A stretch of DNA of 63,452 bases, the filler included, from Rozella allomycis CSF55 (taxonomy: Eukaryota): NCBI GenBank assembly GCA_000442015.1. It is 11 parts of 11 records of this genome, joined end to end, with 100 filler letters (N's around TTAATTAATTAA, not from the genome) between each part and the next. Parts side by side here need not be neighbours in the genome. Positions count along the whole stretch, not along the records: positions 19,162 to 34,782 come from KE560476.1; 10 more parts are not named here. One strand, 5' to 3'. Both the position numbers and the translations under genes were made by a program. Shown here one piece after another: positions 4,225 through 34,882 of the stretch (the stretch's first letter is position 1; every line of letters starts with the position of its first letter). The notes below the pieces were generated by a model, which was given only the letters and a program-made list of their open reading frames with translations, was not told the DNA's origin and ran no database searches.

Positions 4225-6275
4225 ATTTATTCATAGATTTTTTGATACACAACTACGAATCCCAGCTGGTACAAATTCTATCAGCATCCGATCCCCATCT
4301 CCACTATTCCCTTTTCATAGAGTATGTCATTACCCTCAATTAAACAAGTTTTTGCATTCTTCTTGACAGTCTTCCCGATTTGTGCGACTCTTTGATCTAC
4401 CGCTCCCTGCCACTCTTGAAAATACTCGACAGGCACGCAGTTTCTGCCCAGAAAATTCTCTTNGTGCTTATTGGTCCGCTAAAGCCAATATACACACAAG
4501 ATTCGAAAACTTGCCCGAACACCCAGAATTTTTGCACTACTCTTTACCCGGCTCAGACTTGTCAGGCATGTTCATCGCATTCAACGGTACTGTCATCAAA
4601 GCAGGAACAAATAAAACACAAGAACGTGCGAAAATGTTCAAATGCAAGAAATGCAAGGCAATGTTTGAAATTGAAGTGGATGATGCCTTGTATCACNGAA
4701 TGTGCAGCTGCCAGGAAAGATCCGGAATATGCATGTGTTGGCACGCAGTTTGAAATGATTACCGATCCTAGTAATAATTTTCAATTGATATTATTGATAT
4801 AATTGGCAATTTGATTCAAGACTATCAAGAAATTAGGGTGCAAGAGCAAGTTGGCAGACTCGAAATTGGAACTGTAACATTGACTGGATAATCTGTTGTA
4901 GATGCCTAAAGCGATTACAGTCATTTTGAAGAATGATTTGGTTAACAAAGTCAAAGTTGGAGATAATGTATCTGCAATGTAACATTCATTGAATATAAAT
5001 TGCTAGTGGCACTTTGATTAGAAAATGGAAAGCCACAAAGCCTAATGAACCTTGCATTTTGGATTTAGTGTTTGTTGCAAACAATGTCATCCAGACCAAC
5101 GAAAAAACCTCCATTTTATCGATTTCTGATAATATTAAAAAGGAATTCAAACTGTTTTGGGAAAGTCGCAGGGATAACGAATTGCTTGGAAGGAATTTTA
5201 TTGTACAACAGTTTTGTCCAAATATTTTTGGACTTTTCCAAGTCAAACTGGCTGTTTTGTTGCTCTTGTTAGGTGGAAATTCAAAGAATGGTACTAATGG
5301 CACGAAAACTAGAGGTGAGCCGCATGTTTTGCTATTGGGAGATCCCAGCACAGCGAAATCACAATTTTTGAAAGCGGCTGCGTTACTTTCGCCTAGATCA
5401 ATTTTGACTACGGGGACTGGTACGAGTACGGCTGGTTTAACTGTGTCGGCTGTCAGAGAATCAGGGTCATGGTCTCTTGAGGCGGGTGCATTGGTGTTGG
5501 CTGATCGAGGCATTTGTTGTATTGACGAGTTTGGTTGTGTTAGTACTTCGGATAGAATGGCTATTCATGAAGCAATGGAACAGCAAACTCTGAGTATTGC
5601 CAAAGTAATTCAACTTTAAAGCTGTAATAGGCTGGAATTGTATGCAAGCTTAACACTCGATGCTCAATTCTCGCTGCTACCAATCCTAAAGGGAACTTTG
5701 ATACAAAAGAATCACTAGCTTCAAATTCGTCTTTATCTTCACCCCTTTTAAGTCGATTTGATTTAATTTTACTTTTAATTGATCGAAAAGACAAAGATTT
5801 AGACTCTTGCATCGCTGATTGTATTTTGAAGGATGAGAAATCCGAAATGGAGAACGAATGGAGTTTGGAAAAGTTGAAAATGTTTATAAATTTTGCGAAA
5901 AATGAATTCGCGCCAGAATTGACTGAGAATGCCTCCAATATTATCACTGCGTATTATCAGTTGCAAAGAAGCCAAGAAGACGCTGCATCTGGAAGAACTA
6001 CAATGCGGCTTTTAGAATCTATGATTAGGCTTACTCAGGCGCACGCTAAACTTTTGTTTCATGAAAAGGCAGAAATCTTTGATGCTGTCAGCGTTGTGCT
6101 TTTGTTTGAATCAGCGATGCATAATGGTATAATTTTTGGTAATACTTCATTTCTAATTGACTCGCTATTTCAAGATAATCCAAATGATGAGTATCAGGCT
6201 ATGGGTACATCTCCTTTCTTATGTTTACTTAGAATACACAGTATTGGAATCACTCAATCTCGGCTATTTATGTAA
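4225..6275 (+). CDS. MCM9: MCM9 helicase (multi-exon, 5' end incomplete)
   Basis: [89 protein letters not shown] and an N-terminal Zn finger; 26-nt intron at 5605-5630. Confidence 0.9.
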
Positions 6276-11220: not shown

Positions 11221-12329
11221 ATGAGTATCAGAATATCGTCGATTAATCTACCTGATGTCGTATGACTTTTTATGTTGTTAAAGATTTAAGGATACCAGCA
11301 TGCCAGAGGTTTATGAGACACCAGATCCTGTAGTTGTTGTCGATAACAATTATTCACCACCAGAAAATATTCAAAAGGACAATATTATCACAGAAACAGG
11401 AACCAAAAGTATAAAGGATAATATAACTATATTTTCCAGCGAAGATAATCCAAGGTTCGGTATCAATTTTAGAAACTAGCCATAGGTAGAGTACTTTGGT
11501 AATCTAAGTTCGTTTTATTTCCCATGGGCAAGACGAAAAGAAAATTCTATTCAAAAGTATTTTAGATTAAGGCAAGAGATTGAGGAACTTGGGAAAGAAG
11601 TTCAAGATGAAAGCGCAAAGAAATGTTCGAAAATACCAGTCACAGATTTAAGTTTAATGATATCCAAGCTAAGACAAAACCTGGAGCTATTTAATCCAGC
11701 ACAGAATTTTACTGTGCCCTTAAATGAAGGAATCGATGTTCTAATTGAAGATATTCGCCAGGAAAAGCAAAATGTGAAAGAGCCAGCTCGTGAAAAACAT
11801 TCTTTAAATGTTCAAGAAGTGGAGTTAGAAAAGCGACTGCGCTCAATTGAAGACAAATTTGGTCATCCAAATCTGTGGAAAGGGCAAAGTTTGCATGACC
11901 GATTACAGAGATTAGAAGAGATTGCTGAAAAATTAAACCCGCATTATTTAGAAAGTTATTTTAAGAAATTGAAAATCATGGCGAATGACATTGAAAAGAA
12001 TTTCACAAAAACATTTAATGTTGAGAAAATTTCAGAGCTTAAAGATTTGGCTTCCAAGGTGGAAGAAGTGGAGGCTGTTTCTGAAGCAGTGCCTGTTTTA
12101 ATAGATCGCTATAAAGATCTGTGTGAGATAGCAAATAGGACGTCTATTATTTCCCAAACAGCCGAAACAATGGATCAAGAACAGTCCAAAATGCACGAAA
12201 CCCTTGAGTACCAAAATGAAATGCTGGAAAAGGTAATTGATATAAAAATGTTCATACTAGTTTGAAAAATGCTTGATGGAGAATATGGAAATGGTGAAAG
12301 CAAATTTAAAATCATTACAAAACAAATAA
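11221..12329 (+). CDS. DCTN2: Dynactin subunit 2 (p50/dynamitin), multi-exon
   Basis: N-terminal PEVYETPD, ENSIQKYFRLRQEIEEL, VELEKRLRSIE coiled coils. Confidence 0.8.
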
Positions 12330-13471: not shown

Positions 13472-13571
13472 NNNNNNNNNNNNNNNNNNNNNNNNNNNNN
13501 NNNNNNNNNNNNNNNTTAATTAATTAANNNNNNNNNNNNNNNNNNNNNNNNNNNNNNNNNNNNNNNNNNNN
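13472..13571. other. Artificial 100-bp linker (also at 16934, 19062, 34783, 37310, 39201, 45727, 53661, 54840, 62237)
   Basis: N44-TTAATTAATTAA-N44, with stop codons in all six frames. Confidence 0.98.
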
Positions 13572-16933: not shown

Positions 16934-17541
16934 NNNNNNNNNNNNNNNNNNNNNNNNNNNNNNNNNNNNNNNNNNNNTTAATTAATTAANNNNNNNNNNN
17001 NNNNNNNNNNNNNNNNNNNNNNNNNNNNNNNNNCAAAGCATTCATCTCATTTCCTTTGCATGCAATTGATCTTGTGCAGGCATTAAGTTTAAAACATTTT
17101 GGCTTTTGAATGGCCCGTTAGGTGATGAACCTTCGGCGTTGCAAAACCCAAGGTACTAAAAGTTGTTACGTACAATAAAAGTGTCCACGGTAAGCAGGCG
17201 AGACATACAGCTTTAAGGTCCTCTCACAGGCCGCCAGATACATGTATCCGGCGAAAATAATTGCGGCAATAGTGGCCATTAACATGGCAAGTCTCCGGGA
17301 GCAAAAAAATACGTTGTTGAATGTAATAAGAACTTAGGATTAATGTTCGTTTGGTTTTAAAGGACAGATACTTGTTTGGATGCGTTAGCCCGCAAATTAT
17401 TATTTTTCGGCGTGGGATCTCGTTTATGGGCATACTGGCAGATGTAGCCTTTCAGTGAAGAAATTAAATTTGGCGGCTGTTACAAAAGCCCCAGCACACC
17501 TTTTATAGTGACGTGTCGCTTTATTTCGAACACGCCACAGN

Positions 17542-19061: not shown

Positions 19062-19225
19062 NNNNNNNNNNNNNNNNNNNNNNNNNNNNNNNNNNNNNNN
19101 NNNNNTTAATTAATTAANNNNNNNNNNNNNNNNNNNNNNNNNNNNNNNNNNNNNNNNNNNNCAAAAAAAATAAAAAAAATTGACATGTTAAACTGAATAA
19201 TAAATGTTATAATTACTATAATTAT

Positions 19226-20233
19226 TTATTTAGCAGCCTTCGTTTTATATTTTTTCTTCAATGATCTCCACTTCTATTGTCATTAAGTAATAGTACTTAC
19301 TTCAACGTTGCATCTATTATTTGACGACTTTGAAAAATAGTCAATGTAGTATTCCACTGCTTCATACGCGTCCTTAGAACCTTTTCCAAACCCTGATCCC
19401 ATTTTAATGTATCTTAGACAATTACATTCGTCATTTTTACTTTTCTATATTCTCATAATCATTTTGATATGCAAAATTAGGACCTACTAAAATGGCAGCT
19501 CCTTTTTTTTCGAACACCGTAACAACACAATGCGGCACGAAGGGCTTAAAAGTCATGACGGTTCCAGGTAACTGGACATATACCTGGGGTTTGTCTTTAT
19601 ATTTGAAATAACTTTACAATTTAAAAGGTTTTTTTACCTTAATAATTCTGCTTCGTCGCATGTATATGAGGAAAATTTCGTATTAAATTTAGTTATGCGC
19701 TTCCAAAATAACCAAATTTTGGCAACCTTGACTTTGGTTGGAAGAAACCATGCAAAATTATGCCCCATATCGATGTGTCGATAGGTGACATAATCTCCAA
19801 AATGCGCAAAAGCTGTAAATGTTGGAACACAAACATTTGTACAATCTTTTATCATCCTACATTTTTAAACTCTACTTAATGTTACTTATCATTGAAATGC
19901 TGTAATTCCTTTTCAATAAGTAGAACTGTCTTTTCTTGACCACTTTTTAAAATGTCGTCAATTCTACGCTGTAGCTCGGATTTAGTTATTCCTTGGTTAT
20001 CATAAATATAACTTGTTATTACCAAAGTTTTGATACTGGTTTCCCGCCCACAAAACAACATCTCTTTTATCTGCTTCCCACGTTTTAATATTAAATACTC
20101 CTCTGTCGCATATACTCACATTCGAGTGATAATGCGCAGCCAGAGTTTTTAATATTTGTGGATTGATTTTGGGTTTAAAACCTATCTTCTTCGTCAACAG
20201 AGCCTCTCTGTTCGCTTTTCTCATACAAGCCAC
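19226..20233 (-). CDS. JmjC-domain 2OG/Fe(II) dioxygenase (5 introns; start uncertain)
   Basis: Removing GT-AG introns 19992-20022, 19857-19885, 19612-19637, 19413-19440 and 19274-19300 gives one frame: ...YVTYRHIDMGHNFAWF...KIWLFW...VQLPGTVMTFKPFVPHCVVTV...AILVGPNF...KAAK*; HxD...H triad present. Confidence 0.8.
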
Positions 20234-20746
20234 CTATGTCCCTCAAGCCTAATACATATCCCTTTTTACGTTTTTTCACCTGAAACATATATAATTGTTT
20301 GTAGCGTATGCTGATGTGTCGCTACCACTCATAAATGACCAACAGTCACCACTGGAACCTCGTTGCCTTAAAACATTGATTAGGTAACATTAATGTCTGC
20401 ATGGCGAGCTCAAATTTAAATTTTAATGTAATGCAGGACATATGTCAATCTCATTTATATATAAATGATGTATCTGTCATGAATGGTGTTTCCTTTTAAG
20501 TACGTTTTGTACCAAATATGCCTGCCTAAAACCCATTTGTGAATGAGAGTTACTTATGTTATAACTATTAACTCTTTTAGGGGCTAAAGATATCATAGAT
20601 AAAGTTTTTTTAAAAAACGATTGTGTCGTCTTCAATGGTGTCCCTTTAGTGCACATAGCATTACATTGCTACAATTTATCAAATATCAGAATACAAAATT
20701 ACTTGTTATGATCTAATATTTGTTCTCTCTACGTCTCGCGTATCCC

Positions 20747-23700
20747 ATGTTGCTAACGACGACGACCATCAATCAAATGTGCGCTGACAACAATTCCTAT
20801 GTATGCGATCCGTCTTACGTATCTCACATGAACGAATATGTTTCTGCAGTTGGTGAACTTGAGTTAACATCGGTGGCGATCAAGGAGAGAATACTGAATG
20901 AATCAAAGTCATTAGGTTATGCTCTGTCTGTTGTTCGGACAGACAAGAATAAAATAATTTTGGCCTGCAGTAGGTCAAAATATCCGTCTTGCTTAGCACG
21001 GGTTAGAATATCAACGTATAAAACAGAAATTGGAAAGATTGGTTTGCATGTGTTTGAGCATAATCATCCTCCTAGCGACAAGGTTACAACACTTCCTGAT
21101 AATGTTGATGATGCTATTCGAAGCTTCACACAAGCGCAAATGAATTCGTTTCAAATACATACTGCCATACAGGTAATGTTTCCAGACAATCATATCCCTA
21201 TACATACAATAGTGACAAAAGTGAAAACAATGCGTAAAGAGCTTTTTGGTAGCACGGGAATTGAATATGATAAACTAATAAAGCAAATTGAAACTGAAGA
21301 GAATACATACACACGAATACAGGTAGAAAGAGATTCATTAGGGACAGTGCTAAATTTTATGTGGAGTGACACGCGCGCGCTAAATAACTTTGAATCAACT
21401 AATTGCGATTTGCTACTTGTCGATACTACATACAAGTGCGTAAAATTTGACCAATCACTTGCATTATTTGTATCTATGGACTGTCACGGTGTATACTATA
21501 TTGTTTCAGCTGCTCTGATTTCTTTAGAAGACGCGCGTACATTCACATGGTTAATTAATAATCTCAAAAGTCTTTGTCCAAAGTTGGGTACTAGTCACAC
21601 CATAATCTTCACTGACAATGACGCTGCTATGACGTTAGCATTTGAGGGCATGGCATTTCTTTCGCATTACCTTGATCTATTTTATTTTTTGCAAGCCCTA
21701 GACCGTAATCTCCGATGTCGCATGCATCAGTACGAAAACTTCCGTCGCACTATACGTCGTCATATTCTTTGCATATCTTCNCTTCCTACTTGTCGATACT
21801 ACATACAAGTGATCTATGGACTGTCACGGTGTATACTATATTGTGTCAGCTGCGCTGAGTTCTTTAGAAGACGCGCGTACATTCACATGGTTAATTAATA
21901 ACCCTAAAAGTGTTTGTCCAAAGTTGGGCACTAGTCACACCATAATCGTCACTGACCATGACGCTGCTATGACATTAGCATTTGAGGGAATGGCATTGCT
22001 TTCACATTACCTTGATCTACTTCATTTTGTGCAAGCCCTAGGCCGTAATCTTCGATGTCGCATGTATCAATACGAAAACTTCCGTCGCACTATACGTCGT
22101 CATATTCTTTGCATATCTTCAACTGAATTGGAGTCGGAAATACCAAATCTTGTTAATTAGTTTCACATTACTAAGGCCGGACGTGAATACATACAGAATT
22201 ATGTCGTTCCTATTCTCCCAAAGGTTTGCCGAAAAGATAGAAGTCATGTATTTGATTTAGGAGTGTCGGGTACTAACTCATGTGAGGCATTTAATCGTGT
22301 CATTAAGAGTTACGGGGCGAACTTTGCGTCGCATGCCTTATCATTGATGCAAATAACTGATTTCATATTTGACACTTACACTGAGAAGTATAAATCTATA
22401 ATTGAACGTAAGGCCCAATTAGTTAATGTTTCAAATATGTCCCAATCTGAAAAGGATTTAAAACAGCGCCTCGGAGCCTATGCAGAGTGTAAATTACTGA
22501 AACAAATGCGAAAAGCTATGTTCTTAGACGTTGTGTCTCACAGCGACAATTGCACATATAAAATATCCAGTAATGACATTCAAGTGGCCACTGTAACATT
22601 AAATGATAGCGATGATGACATTAACCGTGTCTATATTACAAGCGCAAAGAAATTATTTGCTCACACATTGTGGCCGTAAAACAAAAATTGGGTCAATCTG
22701 TCTCCTTTAACGACTGTATTCCTCGTTGGCATATGCCCGTCATTAACGAACCAATGTGTCTTCTGGGTCCTCCAATGTAGTGTCAATGACAGTGCGTCCT
22801 CAAACGTCCCTGCGCGAATGCCGCCTAAAATAACACGCTGTCCATAAGTTAATGTATAATGAAGCTTTTAACAGCGTTGAAAAACTACAGATCGCAATTG
22901 ACGGTTGCCAACACACATACCAATGTCTGTTTCTAAATGTTTCCTCCTTTGATCCTCCAGCTAGGCAAAAAAACGTTCTTAACGAAAAAAAAGTGCAAAT
23001 TAAAATTCAAAAGTATTCGGTTTATTAATATCTTAAATGTACTTCTTTTCCAATAGCCCATCGGTCCCCTTCCGTTTGAGTGAATATGCGCATTCGTCTA
23101 AATCGAGTAAATAAATGTCTCCNTTAGTTTCACATGACTAAGGCCGGATGTGAATACTTACAGAATTATGTCGTTCCTATTCTTCCAAAGGTTTGCCGAA
23201 AAGGGAGTGTCGGGTACTAACTCATGTGAGGCATTTAATCGTGTTATTAAGAGTGACGGAGCGAACTTTGCGTCTGATGCCTTGTCATTGATGCAAATAA
23301 CTGATTTCATATTTGAAACTTACACTGAGAAGTATAAATGTATAATTGAACGTAAGGCGCAATAGTTAATGTATCAAATATGTCCCAATCTGAAACGGAT
23401 TTAAAACAGCGCACCGGAGCCTAGGCAGAGTGTAAATTACTGAAACAAATGCGAAAAGCTATGTTCTTAGACGTTGTGTCTAACAGCGACAATTGCACGT
23501 ATAACATATCCAGTAATGACATTCAAGTGGCCACTGTAACATTAAATGATAGCGATGATGACATTAACCGTGTCTATATTACAAGCGCAAAGAAATTATT
23601 TGCTCACACATTGTGGCCGTAAAACAAAAATTGGGTCAATCTGTCTCCTTTAACGACTGTATTCCTCGTTGGCATATGCCCGTCATTAACGAAACACATG

Positions 23701-23960
23701 TGTCTTCAGGGTCCTCCAATGTAGTGTCAATGACAGTGCGTCCGCAAACGTCCCTGCGCGAGTGCCGCCTAAAATTACAAGCTGTCCATAAGTTAATGTA
23801 TAATGAAGCTTTTAATAGCGTTGAAAAACTACAGATCGCTATTGACGGTTGCCAACACACATATCAAAGTTTGTTTCCTCAAGAGTCCACAAATGTTTCC
23901 TCCTTTGATCCTCCAGCTAGGCAAAAAAGACGTTCTAAACGTAAAAAACGTGCAAAATAA
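20747..23960 (+). pseudogene. MULE (Mutator) DDE transposase with SWIM finger; two overlapping versions, each with stops/frameshifts
   Basis: N-terminal ACSR...C...EHNH, LLVDTTYK, IFTDNDAAM, GTNSCEAFNRVIK, PCLYY...ICSHIVAV (SWIM), basic C-terminal tail. Confidence 0.9.
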
Positions 23961-23989
23961 AATTCAAAAGTTTTCAGTTTATTAATATC

Positions 23990-25536
23990 TTAAATATACT
24001 TCTTTTCCATAAGCCCATCGGTCCCCTTTCGTTTGAGTGAATATGCGCATTCGTCTAAATCGAGTAAATAAATGTCTCCATTTGACAAATTTAAGCCCAC
24101 ACCCGTACCGTGCGGAGATTCATCGTACCAAATGTTCGTGACGTCCTTATTGATTTTTTGTTTCAAGTATTGGTAAATTGCTTCTGTAATATTGTAACCA
24201 TCACAATTTAGTTTAACCTTCCATTTTGCTAATACTTTTTTAGGTTCGCACGACAACGCTGCACAATGCATTGGTACATGGCGATCCATCTCACAAGCAT
24301 GTATAAGGGGCGCTTCATGAAAAGTTATTAAAGTCTTCTTAAAATTGTCCAATGTAAATGACAAATTCGTATCTAAAGGGGGTTTTCCTAGCTCAAATTT
24401 TTTAGATTTCCACATGCGAAAATTTTGATTGTAATTATAGACTCCTCGATCAAAAAGAAAATGAAAGTCGTTGCCTTGCAAAAGCGGCACAAGCAATGGG
24501 AATCGGCCATTAACTGTCCAATGCAGCCTTAAAAACCATCCGCTGTCACACCATGTTCATCATACATTGGATATGCCAATTCGTATAAATTATTCACGAC
24601 CCATCTTAGAACAGCGCAACAACGCTCAATAGACGGAAACACAAACTTTTGAAAAACTAAATGTAAACTAATTTTTGTCCCTTTCGACGCGTCCAACACT
24701 ATCACATTATTGACAATTTCTTCCGCATCGTTTATACCCATGCCCCTTAAGGCTTTTGCAAGATACCATTTAAGACTATCCACGACTGCTTCTTTTCTTA
24801 CTAAGCTTTGAAACTCATTAATGACTGCTTGATATTGACAGTCGATGTCCATAAAGAATTTCACGGGCACATTTTTGCGAACTATTTCGTAGCAAGTCTT
24901 GTTGCAGCTGCCTAAAACACTATAGTAATCAAAAAATGTCTTGATGTCAGTGTAAGCATAGTGACGGGCACCCGAGCTATTAACTTCGCGCGAAACAAAA
25001 ATCTCATTTTCCACTGTTTGTTCGTNACGGAAACACAACCTTTTGAAAAACTAAATGTAAACTAAATTTTGTCCCAGTCGACGCGTCCAACACTATCACA
25101 TCATTGACAATTTCTTCCGCATCGTTTATACCCATGCCCCTTAAGGCTTTTGCAAGATACCATTTAAGACCCTTCACTACTGCTTCTTATCTTACTAAAC
25201 TTGGAAACTCATTAATGACTGCTTGATATTGACAGTCGATGTCCATAAAGAATTTCACGAGCACATCTTTGCGAATAATTTCGTAACAAGTCTTGTTGCA
25301 GCTGCCTAAAACACTAAAAAGGTCACAAAATGTCTTGATGTCAGTGTAAGCATAGTGACGTGCGCCCGGCTATTAACTTCGCGCGAAACAAAAATCTCAT
25401 TTTCCACTGTTTGTTCGTTACTTGATGTTAGACACTTATGCAATTTGCGATGCCATTCAATATCCGCTCTTAACTTTTTTAACTTAAATGCTTCCAGTGG
25501 CGATATAGTAACCAAAGTTCTTTTTGAATTCGACAT
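23990..25536 (-). CDS. PrimPol-like archaeo-eukaryotic primase-polymerase (one frameshift at a T-run near 24530; duplicated segment at N25026)
   Basis: GARHY...FFDYY...CYEIVRKNVPVKFFMDID (motif I), DASKGTKISLHLVF (motif II SxH), FDRGVYNYNQNFRMWKSKK (motif III). Confidence 0.85.
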
Positions 25537-25863
25537 TCTAAAGTTTCACTTGCAACTCCCCGTTTATATACCCGTATGTTTCATTTTTAATTGGTTCAAA
25601 ACCACCATTACCCCTAACTCCTTCTATTCTTAGGACATTCTTCTTTATAATTGGTTCAAAACGTAATTTTCATAAACTATATATACACTATACCGCTGAA
25701 TTTGCATATGACTAAACGAGGTAAACACTTTATCGTATCGTTCAATGAGCAAGCGATGCAGAACATACCTGCCCACCGGATACTACAANTACATTCTTGT
25801 TTATAATTGGTTCAAACCGTCATTTTCATAAACTATATATACACCATACCGCTGAATTTGCAT

Positions 25864-27575
25864 ATGACTAAACGAGTTAAACACTTTATCATATTGTTCA
25901 ATGAGCAAGCGATGCAGAACAATTCGGCCCACCGCATACTACAAGCTTTTGATTCAGCTACAAATGTTCCGCCTACTACAGTCACAGGTATTTTGGACTT
26001 AGAAGCCGCTGCAGATAATTCAGATGCCGCAACAATCACTACNCTACTGTCACAGGTATCTTGGACTTAGAAGCCGCTGCAGATACTTCAGATGCCGCAA
26101 CGATCACTACTTTCGTTCTAACAAAATCGTCGGAGGGTCAACAATTATCCTCCTTTTTGTCGTTTAACAAAACGAAAAGACTAGGTCGTCATTTTCTCTC
26201 ACGTATCATTACACACAACGTACACATTCAAAGTGTTAAAGCACTTAAACGTAATTGGAAACATGACTTAATTGCTTTGATCCAAGGTTGCAACAACAAT
26301 TACGAGGTACTTAGGGGGACTATGCCAGACATTAGTTCCTCAAAAATGATTTCATTAATAGATTTTTATGCAATTGCATGTNACTTTGATCCAAGGTTGC
26401 AACAACAATTACGAGGTGCTTAGGGGGACTATGCCAGACATTGACACGGTAGTTAGTTCCTCAAAAATGATTTCATTAATAGATTTTTATGCAATTGCAT
26501 GTGATCATAAATTTCACGACGAATTATGCCTTTTTGCCTTTATTCAAAACCACGAGTCTTCATTTGACATTCAATTAGAACAACTAGCTTTTCAATTAAA
26601 ACTTTCGTAAACCGAAATATGCACTCTAAAAGCATGTCCGTACGTGTTGCCGAAGCAATTTCTTGGGGCGAGTCTCGTCAAGAGGTGTCNCTGACATTCA
26701 ATTAAAACAACTGGCTTTTCAATTAAAAACCTTCGTAAACCGAAATATGCACTCTAAAAGTATGTCTGTTCGTGTTGCCGAAGCAATTTCTTGGGGCGAG
26801 TCTCGCCAAGTGGTGTCTAGACGCCTGCAATCTCGTATGGACATTTTGCATCACCTCAAACCACAAGAGCGCCCTATCGAAACAGATAATATATATTTGA
26901 TTTTGCGAACGCATAATTTAGATCCGCATATCTTTCGTGCGGCTTTACTCAANAGGTGTCTAGACGCTTGCAATCTCGTATGGAAATTTTGCATCACCTC
27001 AAACCACAAGAGGGCCCTATCGAAACAGATAATATACATTCGATATTGCGAACGCATAATTTAGATCCGCATATCTTTCGTGCGGCTTTACTCAAATTTA
27101 TATTTGCCGATGTATCAAACGAAAACGTCGGCTATGCCTTATTGGTTCTTCCAATACCAACAAAAGCAAAATAGCACAAGGCTTATGCGACATATTGAAG
27201 TCTGCGACTTTAATAAGTGAAAACACCGTTTACAAGTTAAAGCCACTTCTCAATGCAGAGCTTATAATAATTCCTGAATTGCAAAAATTATTTAATTCCA
27301 GAGTATTAAAGGAACAAGACCTGCTTGCATTATTGTCTGAGGCAAACACTTTATCAATTCCTGTTTCCAATGACGGAAAACAAAAAAAACTCAATCTAAA
27401 TACACCCATATTTATTATGAATCAAAATGACAATTTTGAAAAATTCACAGACATTTCATCCTTAAAAAACAGGTTAGAAATAATACATTTCAATGGCCCG
27501 GCATTTTCAAGCAACCTTCAACTTCCAATCACCGGCCATGCACTTGCTTACTTTCTTTTGACACCAAATGAATAG
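25864..27575 (+). CDS. Parvovirus NS1/Rep-like superfamily 3 helicase (duplicated pieces at N joins; -1 shift near 27117)
   Basis: NIYLILRTHNLDP...KRKRRLCLIGSSNTNKSKIAQGL (Walker A), ELIIIPE (Walker B), TPIFIMNQN (motif C), SLKNRLEIIHF (Arg finger). Confidence 0.75.
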
Positions 27576-27714
27576 ATATACTTAATAATAAAGGCTATTA
27601 AATATTTTATTTTCTTTAAACCTTTCTATTTTTAAATTTATATATCAGCCACAGTGGATTAAACTCGAGCCAGTGAGGCGCATTACTTGCCATTCCATTC
27701 CACCAATCATATTT

Positions 27715-27763
27715 CTTCTTACCTATGGGGTGTGGTCACACCCGGGGTGTAATTTCTTTAGCC
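27715..27763 (-). repeat. Right terminal inverted repeat with GC hairpin
   Basis: Reverse complement is GGCTAAAGAAATTACACCCCGGGTGTGACCACACCCCATAGG. Confidence 0.8.
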
Positions 27764-27899
27764 GAAAATCCTAAACCATTCAATCAACCAAACCAAATCA
27801 AAGAACAACTAAAATAAGAAATATAACAACAAATTAATGAACAATTCAAACAAAACAAGAACGAATCAATCAAATGATGATGAAAGAGAATAATTCTTT

Positions 27900-28330
27900 A
27901 CACCAGAATATAAAAGGGAAGCAATCAAGAAATAAGCGATCAGTTTCCAACTCATTTCTCTGATTCATCTTCATTTTATCAATTAATCCATCTATCCATC
28001 TATCATACCACATACGATTTTACTTTTGCCTTTAGCCTCCCAGTATTTTCGAATTAGTGTGAAATCGTGGAAGTCAATTTCTTCCTCCCATTGGTTGTAT
28101 GATGGATCATGATTCTTCCAGTTTACCAAATATTCTGATGTATTGTCAGCATTTAGTCTGTGTTCTAATATCTTTTCGACTTGAACAGCTTTGCTGTTTG
28201 GATCCTCGTTAACTGGGGTGCCATGGAATAATATCAATGTATGAGGAGGGCGAGTATTTATGGTGCCATCTGGACCTAAAAGTTCACAGGCGCCACCTTT
28301 GTTTCGTCTGATTATTTTGAAAGGCCCAGT
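27900..28330 (-). mobile_element. Ty3/gypsy chromovirus 3' end (integrase GPF motif, chromodomain, probable LTR)
   Basis: GPFKIIRRNKGG; VEKILEHR...EYLVNWK...YNQWE chromodomain; 27915-28011 resembles 29170-29266. Confidence 0.8.
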
Positions 28331-28552
28331 TTTTAAAGTATGGACTATTCATTAAATTTGAAAATAGCAATGTAAAGCCGTTGTGGCTGAGTTTATTTAA
28401 AAGTTTTTCTTCAGCCTAGGTACNCTAGTAAGAGAATTTGTCTGGTTTTCCGATGGGTTTTTAATTGATACTGGTATTGTTTTCTTTCGTTTTTGCAAGC
28501 ATTCTGTTGAAGTAATCTTTAGTGGCAAAGAAGCTAACGAATCTAAAATCTA

Positions 28553-29007
28553 GGGCAGATCAATTCCCCGCACCATGTTGGTCATGTCCCTACACCACCT
28601 AAATAAAACTTTGAAAAAATGTCAATTGCCCGCACCATTTGTCATTTTCCCGCACCACCTTAAAAAAACATTTCCCCGCACCACATGAAGGACTTGTCAA
28701 AGTTATGCGTTAATTCGACATAGTACAACTCGCCCATTACTTATCGAAGCAACATAGCTTGCATGTAACAGTCGGGACAGAAAAAACTTAAAGAACTTAA
28801 GAAAAAGGGCGACTTTCGCATGAGAAAGAAGACAGAAAACAGGTCACTGAATTTGTACGCAGGAATATATTATAAATATGAATAAATGTATTATTATGTA
28901 TATGCGCAACACCTATATATATCTATTTCTGAATTGAGATTTTGGTGTGAGTTTTTGGTGGTGCGGGGAAATGACATTTTTTGGTGGTGCGGGGAATGAT
29001 GATCTCC
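28553..29007. mobile_element. Non-autonomous MULE-type MITE
   Basis: GG...CC ends; imperfect TIRs built of CCCCGCACCA units; 9-bp TSD TAAAATCTA (28544-28552) / TAAAATCCA (29008-29016). Confidence 0.75.
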
Positions 29008-29266
29008 TAAAATCCAGGTAAACCTTAATGAAGTGTTAGCACACATCAATGAAGTCAGAAGAATAATCTCAAAGAAAGAAGAAGAAGAAAAAAGTGAATC
29101 AATTATAAATGAAAACAATGTATTAGAATCTTCCAGACGAATGGTAGCTATGACAACGTCAGCATATATAAAGGAAGCAATCAAAAAAAAACAAGCGGTT
29201 TCCAACTCACTTTTCTGAGTCATCTTTACTTTATCAATTTATCCATTCATTCATCTATCTTGTTAC

Positions 29267-32227
29267 AAACGATTATATCCTGTTCCTATCGCATTGACAA
29301 ACTAACAGGACCACCAATTATCACACATGGGCGCTGGAGTTCCGCTAAGTCCTTGAAGAATTGGACCTTGATCGCTTTTGCACATCGCCTTCGTATCCAT
29401 TATCTAAATCCAATGCTACCTGACCAAGCCTATAATACTATCCCGGCCACTCCTCCCGGGTGTTGCGATATCTTTCATTTAGAAAATCATGCTCCTCACA
29501 CATGTCAACATCTTCCACTTTGGTATGTGCCAGGAAAATCTCAGTACCTGTTTTGCAAGCATTGTCGCACTGCCGTCACAGTTTCCAGAACTGTTATCAC
29601 CCACCTGCACCATGGGAAACAAGGCGTGACCGGGGTTATCAACAACACCGAAGACGGAATGCATTTCCTAAACCACCTCGTAGACAACAAGATGACCCTC
29701 CTACAAGAAGCGACGAGAATCTCCAACAAGAATCACGACTTGTTCACAATGATGAAGATCCATTTAACCCAAACATATTCTCTAATTGTCTTCATTTAAC
29801 AACAAACAATTTACAAAAACCATGCCATCTCATCAGGTAATACTTGGCTTGTTGACACAGGGCGCACTCATCACATGACTAACAATATCAATCCCTTTCA
29901 GTACTATCACGAAAATGCTAATCCACCTGTTAGATTTGCAAAGATTGGTCTCATTGAAGTTCCAGATTCAGCGTTTGTCACACTCCAGGTGCTATTGCGC
30001 GATGGCACAGTCAAGCCTTTTTCTTATCTAATGTTCTCTATGTTCCAGACGTGAATCATATTTTATTTTCCTGCGAGATCCGAATGTTTAAAAGAATCGT
30101 GTGTTGTTTAGTGATGGGTTTTGTACTGCTGAAGACAAGGTCACTGGAGAAATTTTGTTGGAAGGTATATATGATGGTCGATTTTATCTTATTTTACTCT
30201 AAGAGCCGCGATCTTATCATCTGTAAGTTTTAATCAAATAAATACAATGAATTTGTGGCATGAGAGACTTGGTCATGTGAACGAGGAAACAATCAAACAG
30301 ATGTGGAAAAACCANAGAGGTTCATTTTTCCGTGTTCTTAATTCGTCAGTGACCATGACATATGCTCCTGGTTGAAGATTAAAAATTCTGTTATATTCAA
30401 GGCATTCACCCCCTTCTAGTGTCGCTTTTGTATTAGACAACTTATTAATTTCAGGATACACAATCGATGTCGTTTAGTTAAGATCGATGTCGTTTAGTTA
30501 AGACGAGCCTCCAACTCTATTGGTGATAAAGATATTAACTCTTTTTAATTATTCTAATTCCTAAAAAAGTTAGGAGCCCTTGCGAACATCAACGAAAATG
30601 GTGTAGATTTTGTTGTGTCAGAAACTTTTAGATTACAAATGTATTGTGATTGAGCAACATAGTTATCCCATTCACGAATTTGATCTTGAAGCCAATATGT
30701 CTTTTAGCTATGCCATTAGCACGAGGATTGGATGGAGTTATTAACCTGAATTAACAAGTTGATTCACAAATTATGTACCATTATCAGATCGTCTCCAATT
30801 GTCTTCATTTAACAGCAAACAATTTACAATTACAACAAGCAACATTGCCAGGAGAATACTATCACATGACTAACAATATCAATCCCTTTCAGGACCATCA
30901 CGAAAATGATAATCCACCTGTTAGATTTGCAAAGACTGGTCTCATTGAAGTTCCAGATTCATCGTTTGTCACATTCCAGGTGCTATTTCGCGATGGCACA
31001 GTCAAACCTTTTCTCTTATCTAATCTTCTCTATGTTCCAGACGTGAATCATAATCTATTTTCCTGCGAGATCCGAATGTTCAAAAGAATCGTGTATTGTT
31101 TAGTGATGGGTTTTGTAGAAATTTTGTTGGAAGGCATGAATGATAGTCGATTTTATCTTATTTTATTCTCAGAGCCGCAATCTTATCATCTGTAAGTTTT
31201 AATAAAATAAATACAATGAATTTGTGGCATGAAAGACTTGGTCATATGAACGAGGAAACAATCAAACAGATGTGGAAAAACCAAACCTTTGATGGAATGA
31301 AGCCTTTTAATTAATCAATTGAAAATAGTTCTGGATTCGCTTATATTGAATAATTAGCACAGAAACGTGATGCCGCCGAAGCCATCAAGACATTCATAAG
31401 GAGAATCCACAATAAGCAAAGTTGTAGAATCAAAACAATTAGATCTAATAGAGGTGGAGAATTTGTTAACGGACCTTTAAAAGACTTTTGTGGCCAAATT
31501 ATGAAATTCTAAAACAGGGTATGAATACATATAAGTAATTAGGGGTATTCACCAGGTATGTCATGTATATTCCTTTGACAAAAATGCAAGCAGAAACGAA
31601 ACTGCAGGAGAAGCTTTTGTTAATCAATGGATTAGTATTTTTAGTTTTGCTCATAAAATTTTGTCAGATCAAGGAAGTCAATTCATGGGTAAGNCTTAAT
31701 CATAAGCTTGATTTCTGTGAATCTTGTAGACAGAGCAAATTAACTAGGTCATTCTTTAAAAAAAGCTGTCGCCAAGAGGTCGACGTGGGACAATTTTGGC
31801 ACACAGGTTTTATGGGTCCCATTAATACAACAAATCTAGGACGCAAGATAAATATAATAACTTTCATTGAAAATAGTTCTGGATTCGCTTATATTGAATA
31901 ATTAGCACAGAAACGTGATGCCGCCGAAGCCATCAAGACATTCATAAGGAGAATCCACAATAAGCAAAGTTGTAGAATCAAAACTATTAGATCTAATAGA
32001 GGTGAAGAATTTGTTAACGGACCTTTAAAAGACTTTTGTGGCCAAATTATGAAATNGAGCATATGAAATTATTGGACTATGACTCAGTGAAATGCAAGCT
32101 AGTAGGTTATAACTTAAATTCATAAGCATGGCGCTTTAATGTAATTGGAACTAATAAAATAATTATCTCAACACAGACAGTGTTTCACAAAATTAAGAAA
32201 GAATATATCACACTACAAGAAAATCCT
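29267..32227 (+). mobile_element. Degenerate Ty1/copia retrotransposon (duplicated pieces, interleaved with gypsy fragments)
   Basis: CKHC...H...C knuckle, WLVDTG.THHMT protease, LWHERLGH, CESCRQSKLTR, IRSNRGGEF integrase, KCKLVGY. Confidence 0.85.
30316..30770 (-). mobile_element. Ty3/gypsy integrase C-terminal fragment
   Basis: WDNYVAQSQYICN...STPFSLMFARAP and PGAYVMVTDELRTRKNEP. Confidence 0.65.
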
Positions 32228-34782
32228 GGCTAAATCTATACACACCCGGGGTGTCTGAACACCCCCGGTTCAGAGTNTGAAAATCGCATATAAATGGAAG
32301 CCTGTTTAGCAATAATGCATTCTGGGATTCAACTCCATCAATGTGGGGCGAAGCAATTATGGTGGCAAACTACATACAGAACAGAACAGGAAGACAACAA
32401 CATTCATACAAGANTATCAACAACTTCTACATCAACCGCAGATCATCATCAAACATTAGGAAGAGTGAAGCGTATTAATAAATTTCTTTATCAAATTCTT
32501 TATTTATATTTATCAATGAAAGTCAAAAAAAATTGGGAAATTAATTTACCGATATTTGCCCTTTGCAGATAACTCCAGTATTGTTGAATCCCCTATGTTC
32601 ACTCCTCATTATCATATGTTTGGCCAAAAAGCAAATTTACCTACAGACATTGTATATTTAGATCNGATTTGACATGGATTTATCATGGCTGGCTTGGGCT
32701 TAACTTAGAAAACATTTTGGTCTTCGTCAAGAATAATAATAATAATTGTAATGTTAATCTGCATAATTAAATGTTACTATAATAATTTATTTAGCAGCCT
32801 TCGTTTTATATTTTTTCTTTAATGATCGCCACTTCTATTTTCATTAAGTAATAGTACTTACTTCAAAGAAATTGCATCTATTATTTGACGACTTTGAAAA
32901 ATAGTCAATGTAGTATTCCACTGCTTCATACGCGTCCTTAGAACCTTTTCCAAAGCCTTATCCCAATTTAATGTATCTTAGACAATTACATTCGTCATTT
33001 TCTCTTTTCTATAAGGGCTGAAATGTCATGAAGGTTCCAGGTAATTGGACATATACCTGAGGTTTTTCTTTATATTTGAAATAACTTTACAATTTAAAAG
33101 GGTTTTTGACCTTAATAATTCTGCTTCGTCGGATGTATAGGAGGAAAATTTCGTATTAAATTTAGTTATGCGCTTCCAAATAACCAAATTGTGGCAGCCT
33201 TGACTTTGGTTGGAAGAAACCATCCGAAATTATGCCCCATATCGATGTGTCGATAGGTGACATAATCTCCAAAATGCGCAAAAGTTTTCATTGAAATGCT
33301 GTAATTCCTTTTCAATAAGTAAAACTGTCTTTTCTTGACCACTTTTTAAAATGTTGTCGATTCTACGCTGTAGCTCGGATTTAGTTTTTCCTTGGTTATC
33401 ATAAATAGAACTTGTTATTACCAAAGATTTGATACTGGTTTCCCGCCCACAAAACAACATCTCTTTTATCTGCTTCCCACGTTTTAATATTAAATACTCC
33501 TCTGTCGCATATACTCACATTCGAGTGATAATGCGCAGCCAGAGTTTTTAATATTTGTGGATTGATTTTGGGTTTAAAACCTATCTTCTTCGTCAACAGA
33601 GCCTCTCTGCTCGCTTTTCTCATACAAGCAACCTATGTCCCTCAAGCCTAATACATATCCCTTTTTACGTTTTTTCACCTGAAACATATATAATTGATTG
33701 TAACTAATGCTGATGTCATAAATGACCAACAGTCACCACTGGAACCTCGTTGCCTTAAAACATTGATTAGGTAACATTAATGTCTGCATGGCGAGCTCAA
33801 ATTTAAATTTTAATGTAATGTGGGGCATATTTGAATCTCATGTATATATATATGTATCTGTCATGATTGGTGTTTCCTTTTAAGTACGTTTTGTACCAAA
33901 TATGCGTGCCTAAAACCCATTTGTACATGAAAGTTACTTATGCTATAACTATTAACTCTTTGAGGTGCTAAAGATATCATAGATACAGTTTTTTTAAAAA
34001 ACGATTGTGTCCTCTTCAATGGTGTCTCTTTAGTGCACATAGCATTACATTGCTAAGATTGAGCAAATATCGGAATACAAAATTACTTGTTACGATCTAA
34101 TATTTACCCTCTCTACGTCTCGCGTATCCCATGTTGCTAACGACGACGACCATCAATCAAATGTGCGCTGACAACAATTCCTATGTATGCGATCCGTCTT
34201 ACGTATCTCACATGAACGAATATGTTTCTGCCGTTGGTGAACTTGAGTTAACATCGGTGGCGATCAAGGAAAGAATACTGAATGAATCAAAATCATTAGG
34301 TTATGCTCTGTCCGTTGTTCGGACAGACAAGAATATAATAATTTTGGGCTGCAGTAGATCAAAATATCCGTCTTGCTTAGCACGGGTTAGAATATCAACG
34401 TATAAAGCAGAGATTGGAAAGATTGCTTTACATGTTTTTGATCATAATCATCCTCCTAGCGACAAGGTTACAACATTTCCTGATAATGTTGATGATGCTA
34501 TTCGAAGCTTTATAAAAGCGCAAATGAAATTCGTTTCAAATACATACTGCCATACAGGTAATGTTTCCAGTCAATCATATCCCTATAAATACAATAGTGA
34601 CAAAATGGAAACCTTCCGTAAAGAGCTACGGGAATCGAATATGATACACTAATAAAGCAACTTGAAACTGACGAGAATACATACACACGAATACAGGTAG
34701 AAAGAGACTCATTAGGGACAGTGCTAAATTTTATGTGGAGTGACACGCGCGCGCTAAATAACTTTGAATCAACTAATTGCGA
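32228..34782 (+). mobile_element. Second, partial copy of the JmjC-MULE element, including the left TIR
   Basis: GAAAATCCT|GGCTAAATCTATACACACCCGGGGTGTCTGAACACCCCC; 32770-34782 collinear with 19200-21412; JmjC copy has deletions; transposase ATG at 34131; retro fragments lie between N32277 and N32666. Confidence 0.8.
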
Positions 34783-34882
34783 NNNNNNNNNNNNNNNNNN
34801 NNNNNNNNNNNNNNNNNNNNNNNNNNTTAATTAATTAANNNNNNNNNNNNNNNNNNNNNNNNNNNNNNNNNNNNNNNNNNNN

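Follow-up and report, generated by a model that had tools for sequence, protein, structure and literature searches.

A Mutator-like transposon of Rozella allomycis that very probably carries a PrimPol-type primase and an SF3 helicase between its own ends

In the usual view, cut-and-paste DNA transposons multiply only by indirect routes, via host repair and replication. To our knowledge, the known self-replicating elements of eukaryotes pair a family B DNA polymerase (PolB) with an rve integrase. The element described here lies in a 63,452-base stretch of DNA from Rozella allomycis CSF55 (the window), with its genes at 19162-27763. It is a ~6.4-kb copy of an autonomous-type Mutator-like element (MULE), most likely of R. 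allomycis origin. In it a MULE transposase, an archaeo-eukaryotic primase (AEP) of the PrimPol type, and a superfamily 3 (SF3) helicase very probably form one unit bounded by terminal inverted repeats (TIRs) and a target site duplication (TSD).

The element resembles MULE/MuDR transposons of fungi and other eukaryotes in its DDE transposase with a putative C-terminal SWIM-type finger, its TIRs, and its 9-bp TSD. Like them, it has a further gene next to the transposase and short derivatives that are non-autonomous. It differs from them by the addition of a PrimPol-type AEP and an initiator-type SF3 helicase, both encoded by genes capable of being intact. Polintons/Mavericks and casposons likewise join a transposase or integrase to element-encoded replication proteins and embody the idea of self-copying; according to the excerpts used of PMC4046053 and PMC6431247, theirs are a (protein-primed) PolB and an rve integrase or Cas1, in elements that are 15-20 kb in length or prokaryotic. 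The element of R. allomycis instead has a MULE DDE recombinase and a length of 6.4 kb, and no PolB or capsid genes were found in Pfam scans. The term self-synthesizing in the Polinton or casposon sense therefore does not fit, because PolB is absent and there is neither an rve integrase nor Cas1. Teratorn (piggyBac with a herpesvirus) and the transpovirons, as far as the partial accounts of them extend, are similar in that a DDE transposase is joined to a viral-type primase/helicase set. Teratorn is 180 kb in length and includes a whole virus, and transpovirons pair a protein-primed PolB with a DDE enzyme, whereas the present element is a minimal one with the ends of a MULE. In bacteria, the primase-helicase pair of SCCmec and the IS-excision enhancer IEE, in the excerpts of PMC7581432, PMC9943667, and 10.1101/2023.06.07.543989, are associated with elements moved by a recombinase or transposase that use an AEP/PrimPol-type enzyme and a helicase, with action proposed after excision. 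They differ in being prokaryotic and in their recombinases, and no homology to them is shown here. The primase-helicases of poxviruses (D5) and giant viruses and human PrimPol share the AEP fold, the motifs common to nucleocytoplasmic large DNA viruses (NCLDV), herpesviruses, and PrimPol, and an SF3 partner. In the present element the primase and helicase are separate and divergently transcribed, the helicase is nearer to NS1/E1 than to D5, and there is no alignment of the UL52 finger.

Full-text searches of the literature found no description of a MULE that has both a primase and an SF3 helicase, in keeping with a first-pass annotation of this DNA, which knew of no family with this gene set; Repbase and Dfam were outside the search, and a curated entry may exist there. 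The main text of PMC5751038, as distinct from its supplementary tables, lists MuLE among seven superfamilies in Rozella. In the portion of PMC6431247 on giant transposons, it is suggested that a primase plus a suitable integrase could yield new elements. The excerpt of 10.64898/2026.07.28.741278 concerns MULEs inserted into virophages and polinton-like viruses, which is a different situation. The survey of small DNA viruses in 10.64898/2026.10.13.758929, in its available part, reports AEP replicases with tyrosine recombinases and DDE enzymes with PolB, and discusses replication-integration modules.

Four gene-sized blocks of alternating orientation are present at 19162-27763. The genes and the spacer between the two replication genes are as follows.

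19286..20668, minus strand: left gene, with open reading frames (ORFs) fragmented over three frames in both variants
20717..23957, plus strand: MULE DDE transposase with a C-terminal SWIM region, ~650 codons after de-duplication
23993..25536, minus strand: PrimPol-type AEP primase-polymerase, ATG at 25536, ~383 codons
25537..25707, no strand: divergent primase/helicase spacer, 171 bp between the start codons
25708..27572, plus strand: NS1/E1-type SF3 helicase, ATG at 25708, ~408 codons after de-duplication of five overlap joins

The stop codons of the transposase and primase are separated by 29 bp (23961-23989) and the right TIR begins ~145 bp past the helicase stop, in agreement with the values of ~30 and ~150 bp in the first-pass annotation. 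That annotation had named four packed genes in alternating orientation. The four blocks and three of the assignments were upheld, with Pfam matches for the MULE transposase and the SF3 helicase (the latter through a paralogue that scores over the cut-off) and PrimPol matches for the primase; the primase and the left gene are without a Pfam family match, and the assignment of the left gene as JmjC found no match in Pfam, the PDB, or the Atlas. The recurrence of the left gene and transposase near the end of the scaffold was also recovered, since 32728-34782 repeats 19162-21408 at 90-94% identity (copy B).

The window is a chain of 11 scaffolds. The linkers between them have the form N44-TTAATTAATTAA-N44, which places stops in six frames, and neighboring scaffolds are not physically linked. 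The element-bearing scaffold (19162-34782) is 15,621 bp in length and contains 15 single Ns. This scaffold was cut at its single Ns to give pieces p0 to p15, which were compared. Each of the eight single Ns that separate p0 to p8 marks an overlap, of 67-980 bp at 89-96% identity, between the end of one piece and the start of the next. The sequence before each of these Ns recurs after it, so that the overlaps are written twice and the genes are split into pseudo-duplicates. The scaffold is thus a tiling of slightly different copies of one repeat. The duplicated overlaps inflate the element from ~6.4 to 8.6 kb, where ~6.4 kb is the sum of the de-duplicated pieces and compares well with the ~6.5 kb estimated earlier. 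The concern that the single Ns mark misjoins is largely answered, because the eight junctions are all overlaps of this kind. The pieces that carry the gene junctions, and the Ns between p0 and p8, are the following.

19162-21780, N-free (p0): left gene and 5′ part of the transposase
23124-25025, N-free (p2, taken with p1): 3′ end of the transposase, 29-bp gap between the stop codons, 3′ half of the primase
25027-25788, N-free (p3): 5′ half of the primase, 171-bp divergent spacer, first 27 helicase codons
26954-28423, N-free (p8): 3′ half of the helicase, right TIR, TSD, and flank
21781, 23123, 25026, 25789, 26043, 26382, 26690, and 26953: single Ns at the overlaps of p0-p8

Every gene junction lies inside an N-free piece, and the 27 helicase codons on p3 are identical to the start of P0078, an intact helicase gene model of 408 aa. 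Read-derived Logan contigs from three DNA runs of three studies (X1, X4, and X5) were mapped to the scaffold. A 1999-nt contig of X4, from a separate study, covers 22260-22625 and then 23571-24975 and passes from the C-terminal part of the transposase into the primase. Joints from 26042 to 26112 and from 26682 to 26954 in X1, X4, and X5, and from 26274 to 26384 in X5 only, collapse the helicase overlaps. The word depth of the four genes is of the same order and that of the flanks is 10-50 times higher, although depths are not copy numbers. RNA run X9 gave no contig on the scaffold and carries no information on expression.

Models for the primase and helicase also adjoin elsewhere, as RKP17813/RKP17814 on a 5,103-bp contig and RKP19426/RKP19427 on a 9,602-bp contig. 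In a second lineage they adjoin as O9G_004988/O9G_004990 (18,012-bp contig) and ROZALSC1DRAFT_30407/ROZALSC1DRAFT_30409 (5,122-bp contig). Within this one genome, the pair is therefore kept adjacent in two diverged lineages or more. A search for direct or inverted repeats or a TSD around the primase-helicase block gave nothing beyond AT-rich 10-18-mers. The pair is integral to this MULE family and is not the product of a misjoin. It is highly improbable that separate repeats were scaffolded together and that the genes were never contiguous in a real molecule. Such a chimera could be suspected from the 15 single Ns, the duplicated overlaps, two unrelated pieces after the left TIR, junction 28424, which is without overlap, and the permuted order of the scaffold; it is contradicted by the gene junctions within N-free contigs, the independent 1999-nt contig across the transposase and primase, and the adjoining pairs on other contigs.

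The order of the scaffold is circularly permuted through the flanking high-copy retroelement, and the left end of the element is consequently found at a higher coordinate than the right end. The ends and the duplicated target site are listed below.

32219..32227, no strand: left TSD, GAAAATCCT, identical to the 9 bp at 27764-27772
32228..32276, plus strand: left TIR (GGCTAAA...CACCCGGGGTG...ACACCCC), in terminal position on a contig piece of 220 bp
27719..27763, minus strand: right TIR, on the N-free piece 26954-28423, which also holds the 3′ end of the helicase and the flank
27764..27772, no strand: right TSD, GAAAATCCT, the same 9 bp as on the left side

The contigs of X1, X4, and X5 (three of three DNA runs) contain the empty site, in which 32218 is joined to 27764 with nine letters that fit both sides. 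A single insertion is therefore bounded by 32228 and 27763, with the 9 bp as its TSD. The claim of a single TIR/TSD-bounded unit with transposase, primase, and helicase is supported by the identical 9-bp TSD, the empty site in three read sets, and the N-free junctions. The two TIRs are imperfect, with 33 of 50 aligned columns identical between 32228-32276 and the reverse complement of 27715-27763. Termini were located by a Hamming scan of the window. The 11-nt core CACCCGGGGTG, at no more than one mismatch, is restricted in the window to termini at 1195 (plus strand), 32228 (plus strand), and 27763 (minus strand), and these three share an end of ~45 bp; the left TIR and the terminus at 1195 are identical in 36 of 49 columns. 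The GGCTAAA TIRs of the first-pass annotation hold as ~45-bp imperfect ends at 32228 and 27763. The 7-mer alone is at chance, with 8 sites in the window against ~8 expected for equal base frequencies. The GGCTAAA sites at 20582, 56781, 910, 28031, and 54127 were rejected as termini since no further sequence is shared.

In contigs of X1 and X4, position 32276 is followed immediately by 32667. Between these positions, at 32278-32664, two unrelated pieces of 136 and 250 bp are scaffolded between the left TIR and the interior. These pieces were probably mis-scaffolded, because the read-derived joint skips both; they gave nothing in Pfam and by eye resemble a retroelement integrase. The interior on this side is represented by copy B.

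32667..34782, plus strand: copy B, with subterminal DNA, a fragmented left ORF, and the transposase 5′ part, identified by tblastn and ending at the scaffold end

Other flanks follow the right TIR in four contigs of X1, four of X5, and one of X4, and another flank precedes the left TIR in X4. A contig of X1 joins 32249, 22 nt into the left TIR, to 27491, within the last ~270 bp, with seven letters between them, and looks like a short, MITE-like (miniature inverted-repeat transposable element) deletion derivative. The X4 contig that holds the right-terminal 266 bp has a word depth of 169.5, against 12-15 for the interior contigs. The past mobility of the element is evidenced by its ends, TSD, empty site, and other flanks. 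These ends, the 9-bp TSD, and the short derivative are typical of an ordinary MULE, which argues against the reverse order of events, in which a capsid-less episomal replicon with a primase and an initiator helicase gained a MULE transposase for integration. The gene set does fit a replication module with an integration module, and the concept has been published for other enzyme pairs (in the excerpts of 10.64898/2026.10.13.758929, and for Teratorn in that of PMC6431247). No free form was seen, and in the available part of the former source AEP replicases pair with tyrosine recombinases and DDE enzymes with PolB. An origin of this kind is quite unlikely.

The transposon inserted into a high-copy chromodomain retroelement, which is represented outside the element by the following feature.

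27995..28348, minus strand: chromodomain ORF of the target retroelement (PF00385 at 2.5e-10)

The target DNA at 27773-32218 is rich in retroelement sequence, with Pol_BBD ORFs at 29800-30051 and 30755-31192 and a gag-pre-integrase ORF at 30175-30312. It contains more overlap duplicates and has a much higher word depth than the MULE.

The reading of a MULE with its own primase and helicase depends further on the identity of the proteins. The transposase matches the MULE domain PF10551 with an E value of 4.8e-12 (46.6 bits, cut-off 27.6) on 20717-21895, and its second variant does so at 2.2e-4. Within its span, 21782-22120 repeats 21410-21780 and 23124-24079 repeats 22157-23122 as overlap duplicates. 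Candidate catalytic residues were identified by eye as D (VDTTY), D (TDND), and E (CEAFNRVIK). The SWIM region (23568-23957) matches Pfam SWIM at E 0.0058, below the cut-off. In the window only C-x10-C-x-H can be made out, after a frame break, and the finger has a 10-nt deficit. At this place the X4 contig shows 12 letters against 2 in the window, which, as judged by eye, leaves the frame open and provides the CxC of CxC-x10-CxH.

The primase belongs to the AEP superfamily and to its PrimPol / NCLDV-herpes clade, as judged by PDB sequence matches, fold, and the families of its relatives. The primase ORFs of the window are 57-77% identical to P0001 (376 aa) and 87-98% identical to P0070, an intact model of 383 aa. 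P0002 corresponds to the C-terminal primase ORF of the window minus a 6-residue stretch skipped by the gene model, and 25027-25418 is an overlap duplicate of 24633-25025. The motifs DID, SLH, and FDRGVY...R..S.K are present in the window ORFs. P0001 matches human PrimPol by sequence at E 2.6e-6. The AlphaFold2 (AF2) model of P0001 has a predicted local distance difference test score (pLDDT) of 75.1, and the top 10 Foldseek matches of this model are all human PrimPol (E 3.3e-9 to 2.4e-8), with template modeling (TM) scores of 0.34-0.42 by query and 0.47-0.60 by target. The next fold matches are the AEP domains of poxvirus D5/E5 and the herpes UL52 primases, and the viral structural neighbors are giant-virus primases. 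Pfam returned no family for P0001, P0070, P0072, or the window primase ORFs, and none for P0001 even at E 10.

Relatives of the primase were collected with HMMER, which gave 65 proteins at E ≤0.001. The alignment comprises P0001 and 43 relatives; 22 proteins were dropped by eye, namely five close fragments, P0007, and 16 others, mostly shorter than ~300 aa or matching outside the core. Families among the 44 aligned sequences are Herpes_UL52 (18), AEP_C962R (10), and DNA_primase_S (3). The profile of this alignment matches human PrimPol at 5e-75, a value that describes the relatives and not P0001 itself. Residues K147, S149, H151, D221, Y225, and R234 show no variation among the 44 sequences, and D89 is conserved in 43. 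Three primase lineages of R. allomycis (P0070, P0001, and P0072) are 56-74% identical and keep DID, S-H, D, R, S, and K invariant. An H-x3-HC-x4-C cluster is likewise invariant in the three lineages and, from its sequence pattern, might stand in for the UL52 zinc finger. The zinc finger of human PrimPol is required for priming and is dispensable for polymerase activity. In a pattern scan of viral contigs, one distant giant-virus contig (L001) was found at 25% identity, with a primase ORF of at least 982 aa that also has PriCT_2 and Herpes_ori_bp. P0007, a protein of 2769 aa with bacterial surface-protein domains, contains eight stretches that match primase residues 302-362 (E 1.2e-13). It was set aside as a primase relative for those domains, and the match may be due to a shared small beta-rich repeat or to chance similarity in composition. 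P0001 itself sits on a 102-kb contig.

PrimPol is cellular in many eukaryotes, and with the 5e-75 profile match and the 102-kb contig this would accord with the PrimPol and helicase being cellular repair genes beside transposon debris. Both genes, however, are inside the TIR/TSD-bounded insertion, which the empty site lacks. They are present in several diverged copies, and the helicase is of the viral initiator type. Host genes are accordingly a very improbable explanation of the pair.

The helicase of the MULE was assigned through its window ORF and its paralogues. The window ORF at 27060-27572 scores 24.8 bits against PPV_E1_C, just below the cut-off of 26.5. The intact 408-aa P0078 scores 29.8 bits against the same family and 24.8 against Parvo_NS1 (cut-off 20), and P0069, from the same 90% cluster, scores 23.1 against Parvo_NS1. 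P0078 is 63-91% identical to the window helicase pieces by tblastn. P0078, P0069, and P0067 keep GSSNTGKS / GPSNTGKS, LIIIPE, and IFIMNQ, which we take to be Walker A, Walker B, and motif C. In the Atlas, P0078 has clusters of NS1, E1, and Rep proteins as its neighbors (feature scores 0.94-0.96, TM scores 0.45-0.62). The E1 and NS1 neighbors align over residues 1-408 at TM 0.56-0.62, which serves only as a lead to a possible N-terminal origin-binding domain of the kind found in E1, NS1, and large T. Our own AF2 model of the helicase, from four sequences, has a pLDDT of 37.7 and is unusable. The helicase lineages are 61-62% identical, a divergence similar to that of the primase, as expected if the pair diverged together. 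The longer homologue search returned none for the helicase, and nothing was found in PHROGs or, by pattern scan, in viral contigs. The PDB sequence search gave only matches at E 0.2 or worse, with AAV Rep40 at 1.5.

The 19-nt direct repeat TTTWTAATTGGTTCAAAAC occurs twice in the divergent spacer, at 25584-25602 and 25644-25662, 60 bp apart. Five matches were obtained at up to two mismatches, against 0.78 expected; one of them is an overlap duplicate, and two are the following variant and its copy elsewhere.

20504-20518, minus strand: 2-mismatch variant of TTTWTAATTGGTTCAAAAC in the divergent spacer of the left gene and transposase, with a copy at 33888-33902

SF3 helicases of the NS1/E1 type are origin-binding initiators in small DNA viruses. 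From its position and sequence, the 19-nt repeat could be a promoter element or an initiator-binding site.

The left gene is a guess as JmjC, prompted by visual inspection of 19637-19864 and 19440-19613, where an HxD...H pattern can be recognized. No Pfam match at E up to 10 was obtained for eight fragments and no Atlas match, and the PDB sequence search gave nothing better than E 0.13 and nothing to a JmjC protein. These null searches are weak, because the fragments are short (53-94 aa).

The ratio of nonsynonymous to synonymous substitution rates (dN/dS) between overlap variants is 0.08-0.44 in six transposase and primase segments of 29-224 codons. As a sign of constraint these values are only suggestive, since the samples are small. 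Intact gene models of 383 and 408 aa exist, although they are predictions in which introns may be drawn around defects. The copy in the window is defective and would therefore need proteins supplied in trans.

Several observations weigh against the element as described, in its structure and in its proposed function. The tiled variants differ by 4-11%, and therefore no single physical copy is covered over its full length. The link between the left TIR and the interior depends on copy B and the read-derived contigs alone. The contigs with adjoining primase and helicase are not all independent loci, because both assemblies are from one strain, and the pairs of the other lineage are known here as adjoining gene models. 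In the transposase, a TAG codon is present at 22158 and a frame break precedes the SWIM region in both overlapping variants. Positions 22157 and 22158 are A and G in all X1, X4, and X5 contigs that cover them, which gives GAG, and the frame break at 23568 is absent from the read-derived contigs. The primase has two frame changes near 24515-24556, the left gene of the window copy is fragmented, and the Walker A motif of the window helicase reads GSSNTNKS (G to N) against GSSNTGKS in the paralogues. The single helicase overlap has a dN/dS of 1.64 (44 codons, 6 differences). Of the four columns for the UL52 zinc-finger ligands (C, H, C, C), which are conserved in 37-40 of 44 sequences, three are gaps in P0001, although this region aligns weakly; priming activity is therefore uncertain. 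No processive polymerase family is among the Pfam matches of 26 scaffold ORF pieces, and the AEP is the sole polymerase-like protein. No extrachromosomal form was seen. Pattern scans of metagenome contigs returned no relative of either the primase or the helicase.

Whether the primase-helicase pair has a role in the propagation of the element itself is close to an even question. Passenger cargo offers another explanation, in which the pair is what is left of a small replicon resembling a virus or plasmid, or else two captured genes, and is carried without a role in transposition. MULEs are known to carry foreign sequence, as Pack-MULEs (PMC6431247, in excerpt). The nearest helicase clusters are viral NS1/E1, the structural neighbors of the primase include giant-virus primases, and both genes are damaged in the window copy. 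The catalytic residues are invariant across primase lineages of 56-74% identity and the pair is adjacent in two lineages, which is not expected of dead cargo; the block is without termini of its own, and intact models of 383 and 408 aa exist. Carriage without function is, on this evidence, rather unlikely.

The preferred explanation is a MULE with a replication-initiation module that acts on the DNA of the element, and we consider its chances to be evenly balanced. In the proposed sequence of events, the transposase would free a copy of the element and the helicase would load at an internal site, for which the 19-nt spacer repeats or the palindromic core of the TIRs are candidates. The AEP would then prime or extend, and host polymerases would complete synthesis. 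The excised copy could thus be multiplied, or the donor gap refilled, ahead of re-integration; the pair might instead drive repair synthesis at the donor or target. A cut-and-paste element would in this manner become replicative. AEP-helicase pairs replicate many plasmids with host polymerases. IS256, a bacterial relative of Mutator, forms circles, and extrachromosomal Mu circles have been reported in maize.

The stronger proposal is a new class of eukaryotic replicative DNA transposon, which would excise and integrate as a Mutator element, fire an internal origin on the freed copy with its PrimPol and initiator helicase, pass through a short-lived episome, and gain copies without PolB. This is put forward tentatively, as a possibility that is on balance doubtful. 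The description of the element as self-synthesizing in the first-pass annotation stays at the level of an inference. There is no PolB, three of the four aligned UL52 ligands are missing from the primase, the copy in the window is defective, and neither a transcript nor an extrachromosomal form was observed.

The remaining scaffolds of the window hold ordinary eukaryotic genes, for example MCM (1.3e-49) and dynamitin. The third terminus, at 1195-1243, is on another scaffold with the host genes for MCM (4999-6272) and dynamitin (11486-12262). It may be the end of a non-autonomous or truncated copy, because neither a partner end nor a transposase is nearby. The linkers that separate the scaffolds are located as follows.

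13472-13571, 16934-17033, 19062-19161, and 34783-34882, and six more: linkers between scaffolds

The named close protein relatives are all from R. allomycis CSF55, in two assemblies of one strain, and the many short hypothetical gene models of this organism derive from fragments of a single mobile element. If a MULE retains a primase-polymerase and an initiator-type helicase of its own, this would amount to a third solution, in which an AEP is combined with a DDE enzyme. With four genes in 6.4 kb, it offers a small and tractable system for the study of how replication and integration modules combine and of an episomal stage of transposons. The element also hints at a setting in which genes may pass between transposons and capsid-less replicons or small DNA viruses. 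If the proposal is true, the element would be a minimal, capsid-less bridge from cut-and-paste transposons to small DNA replicons and viruses, one that has been retained while its lineages diverged in a parasite from an early branch of the fungi.

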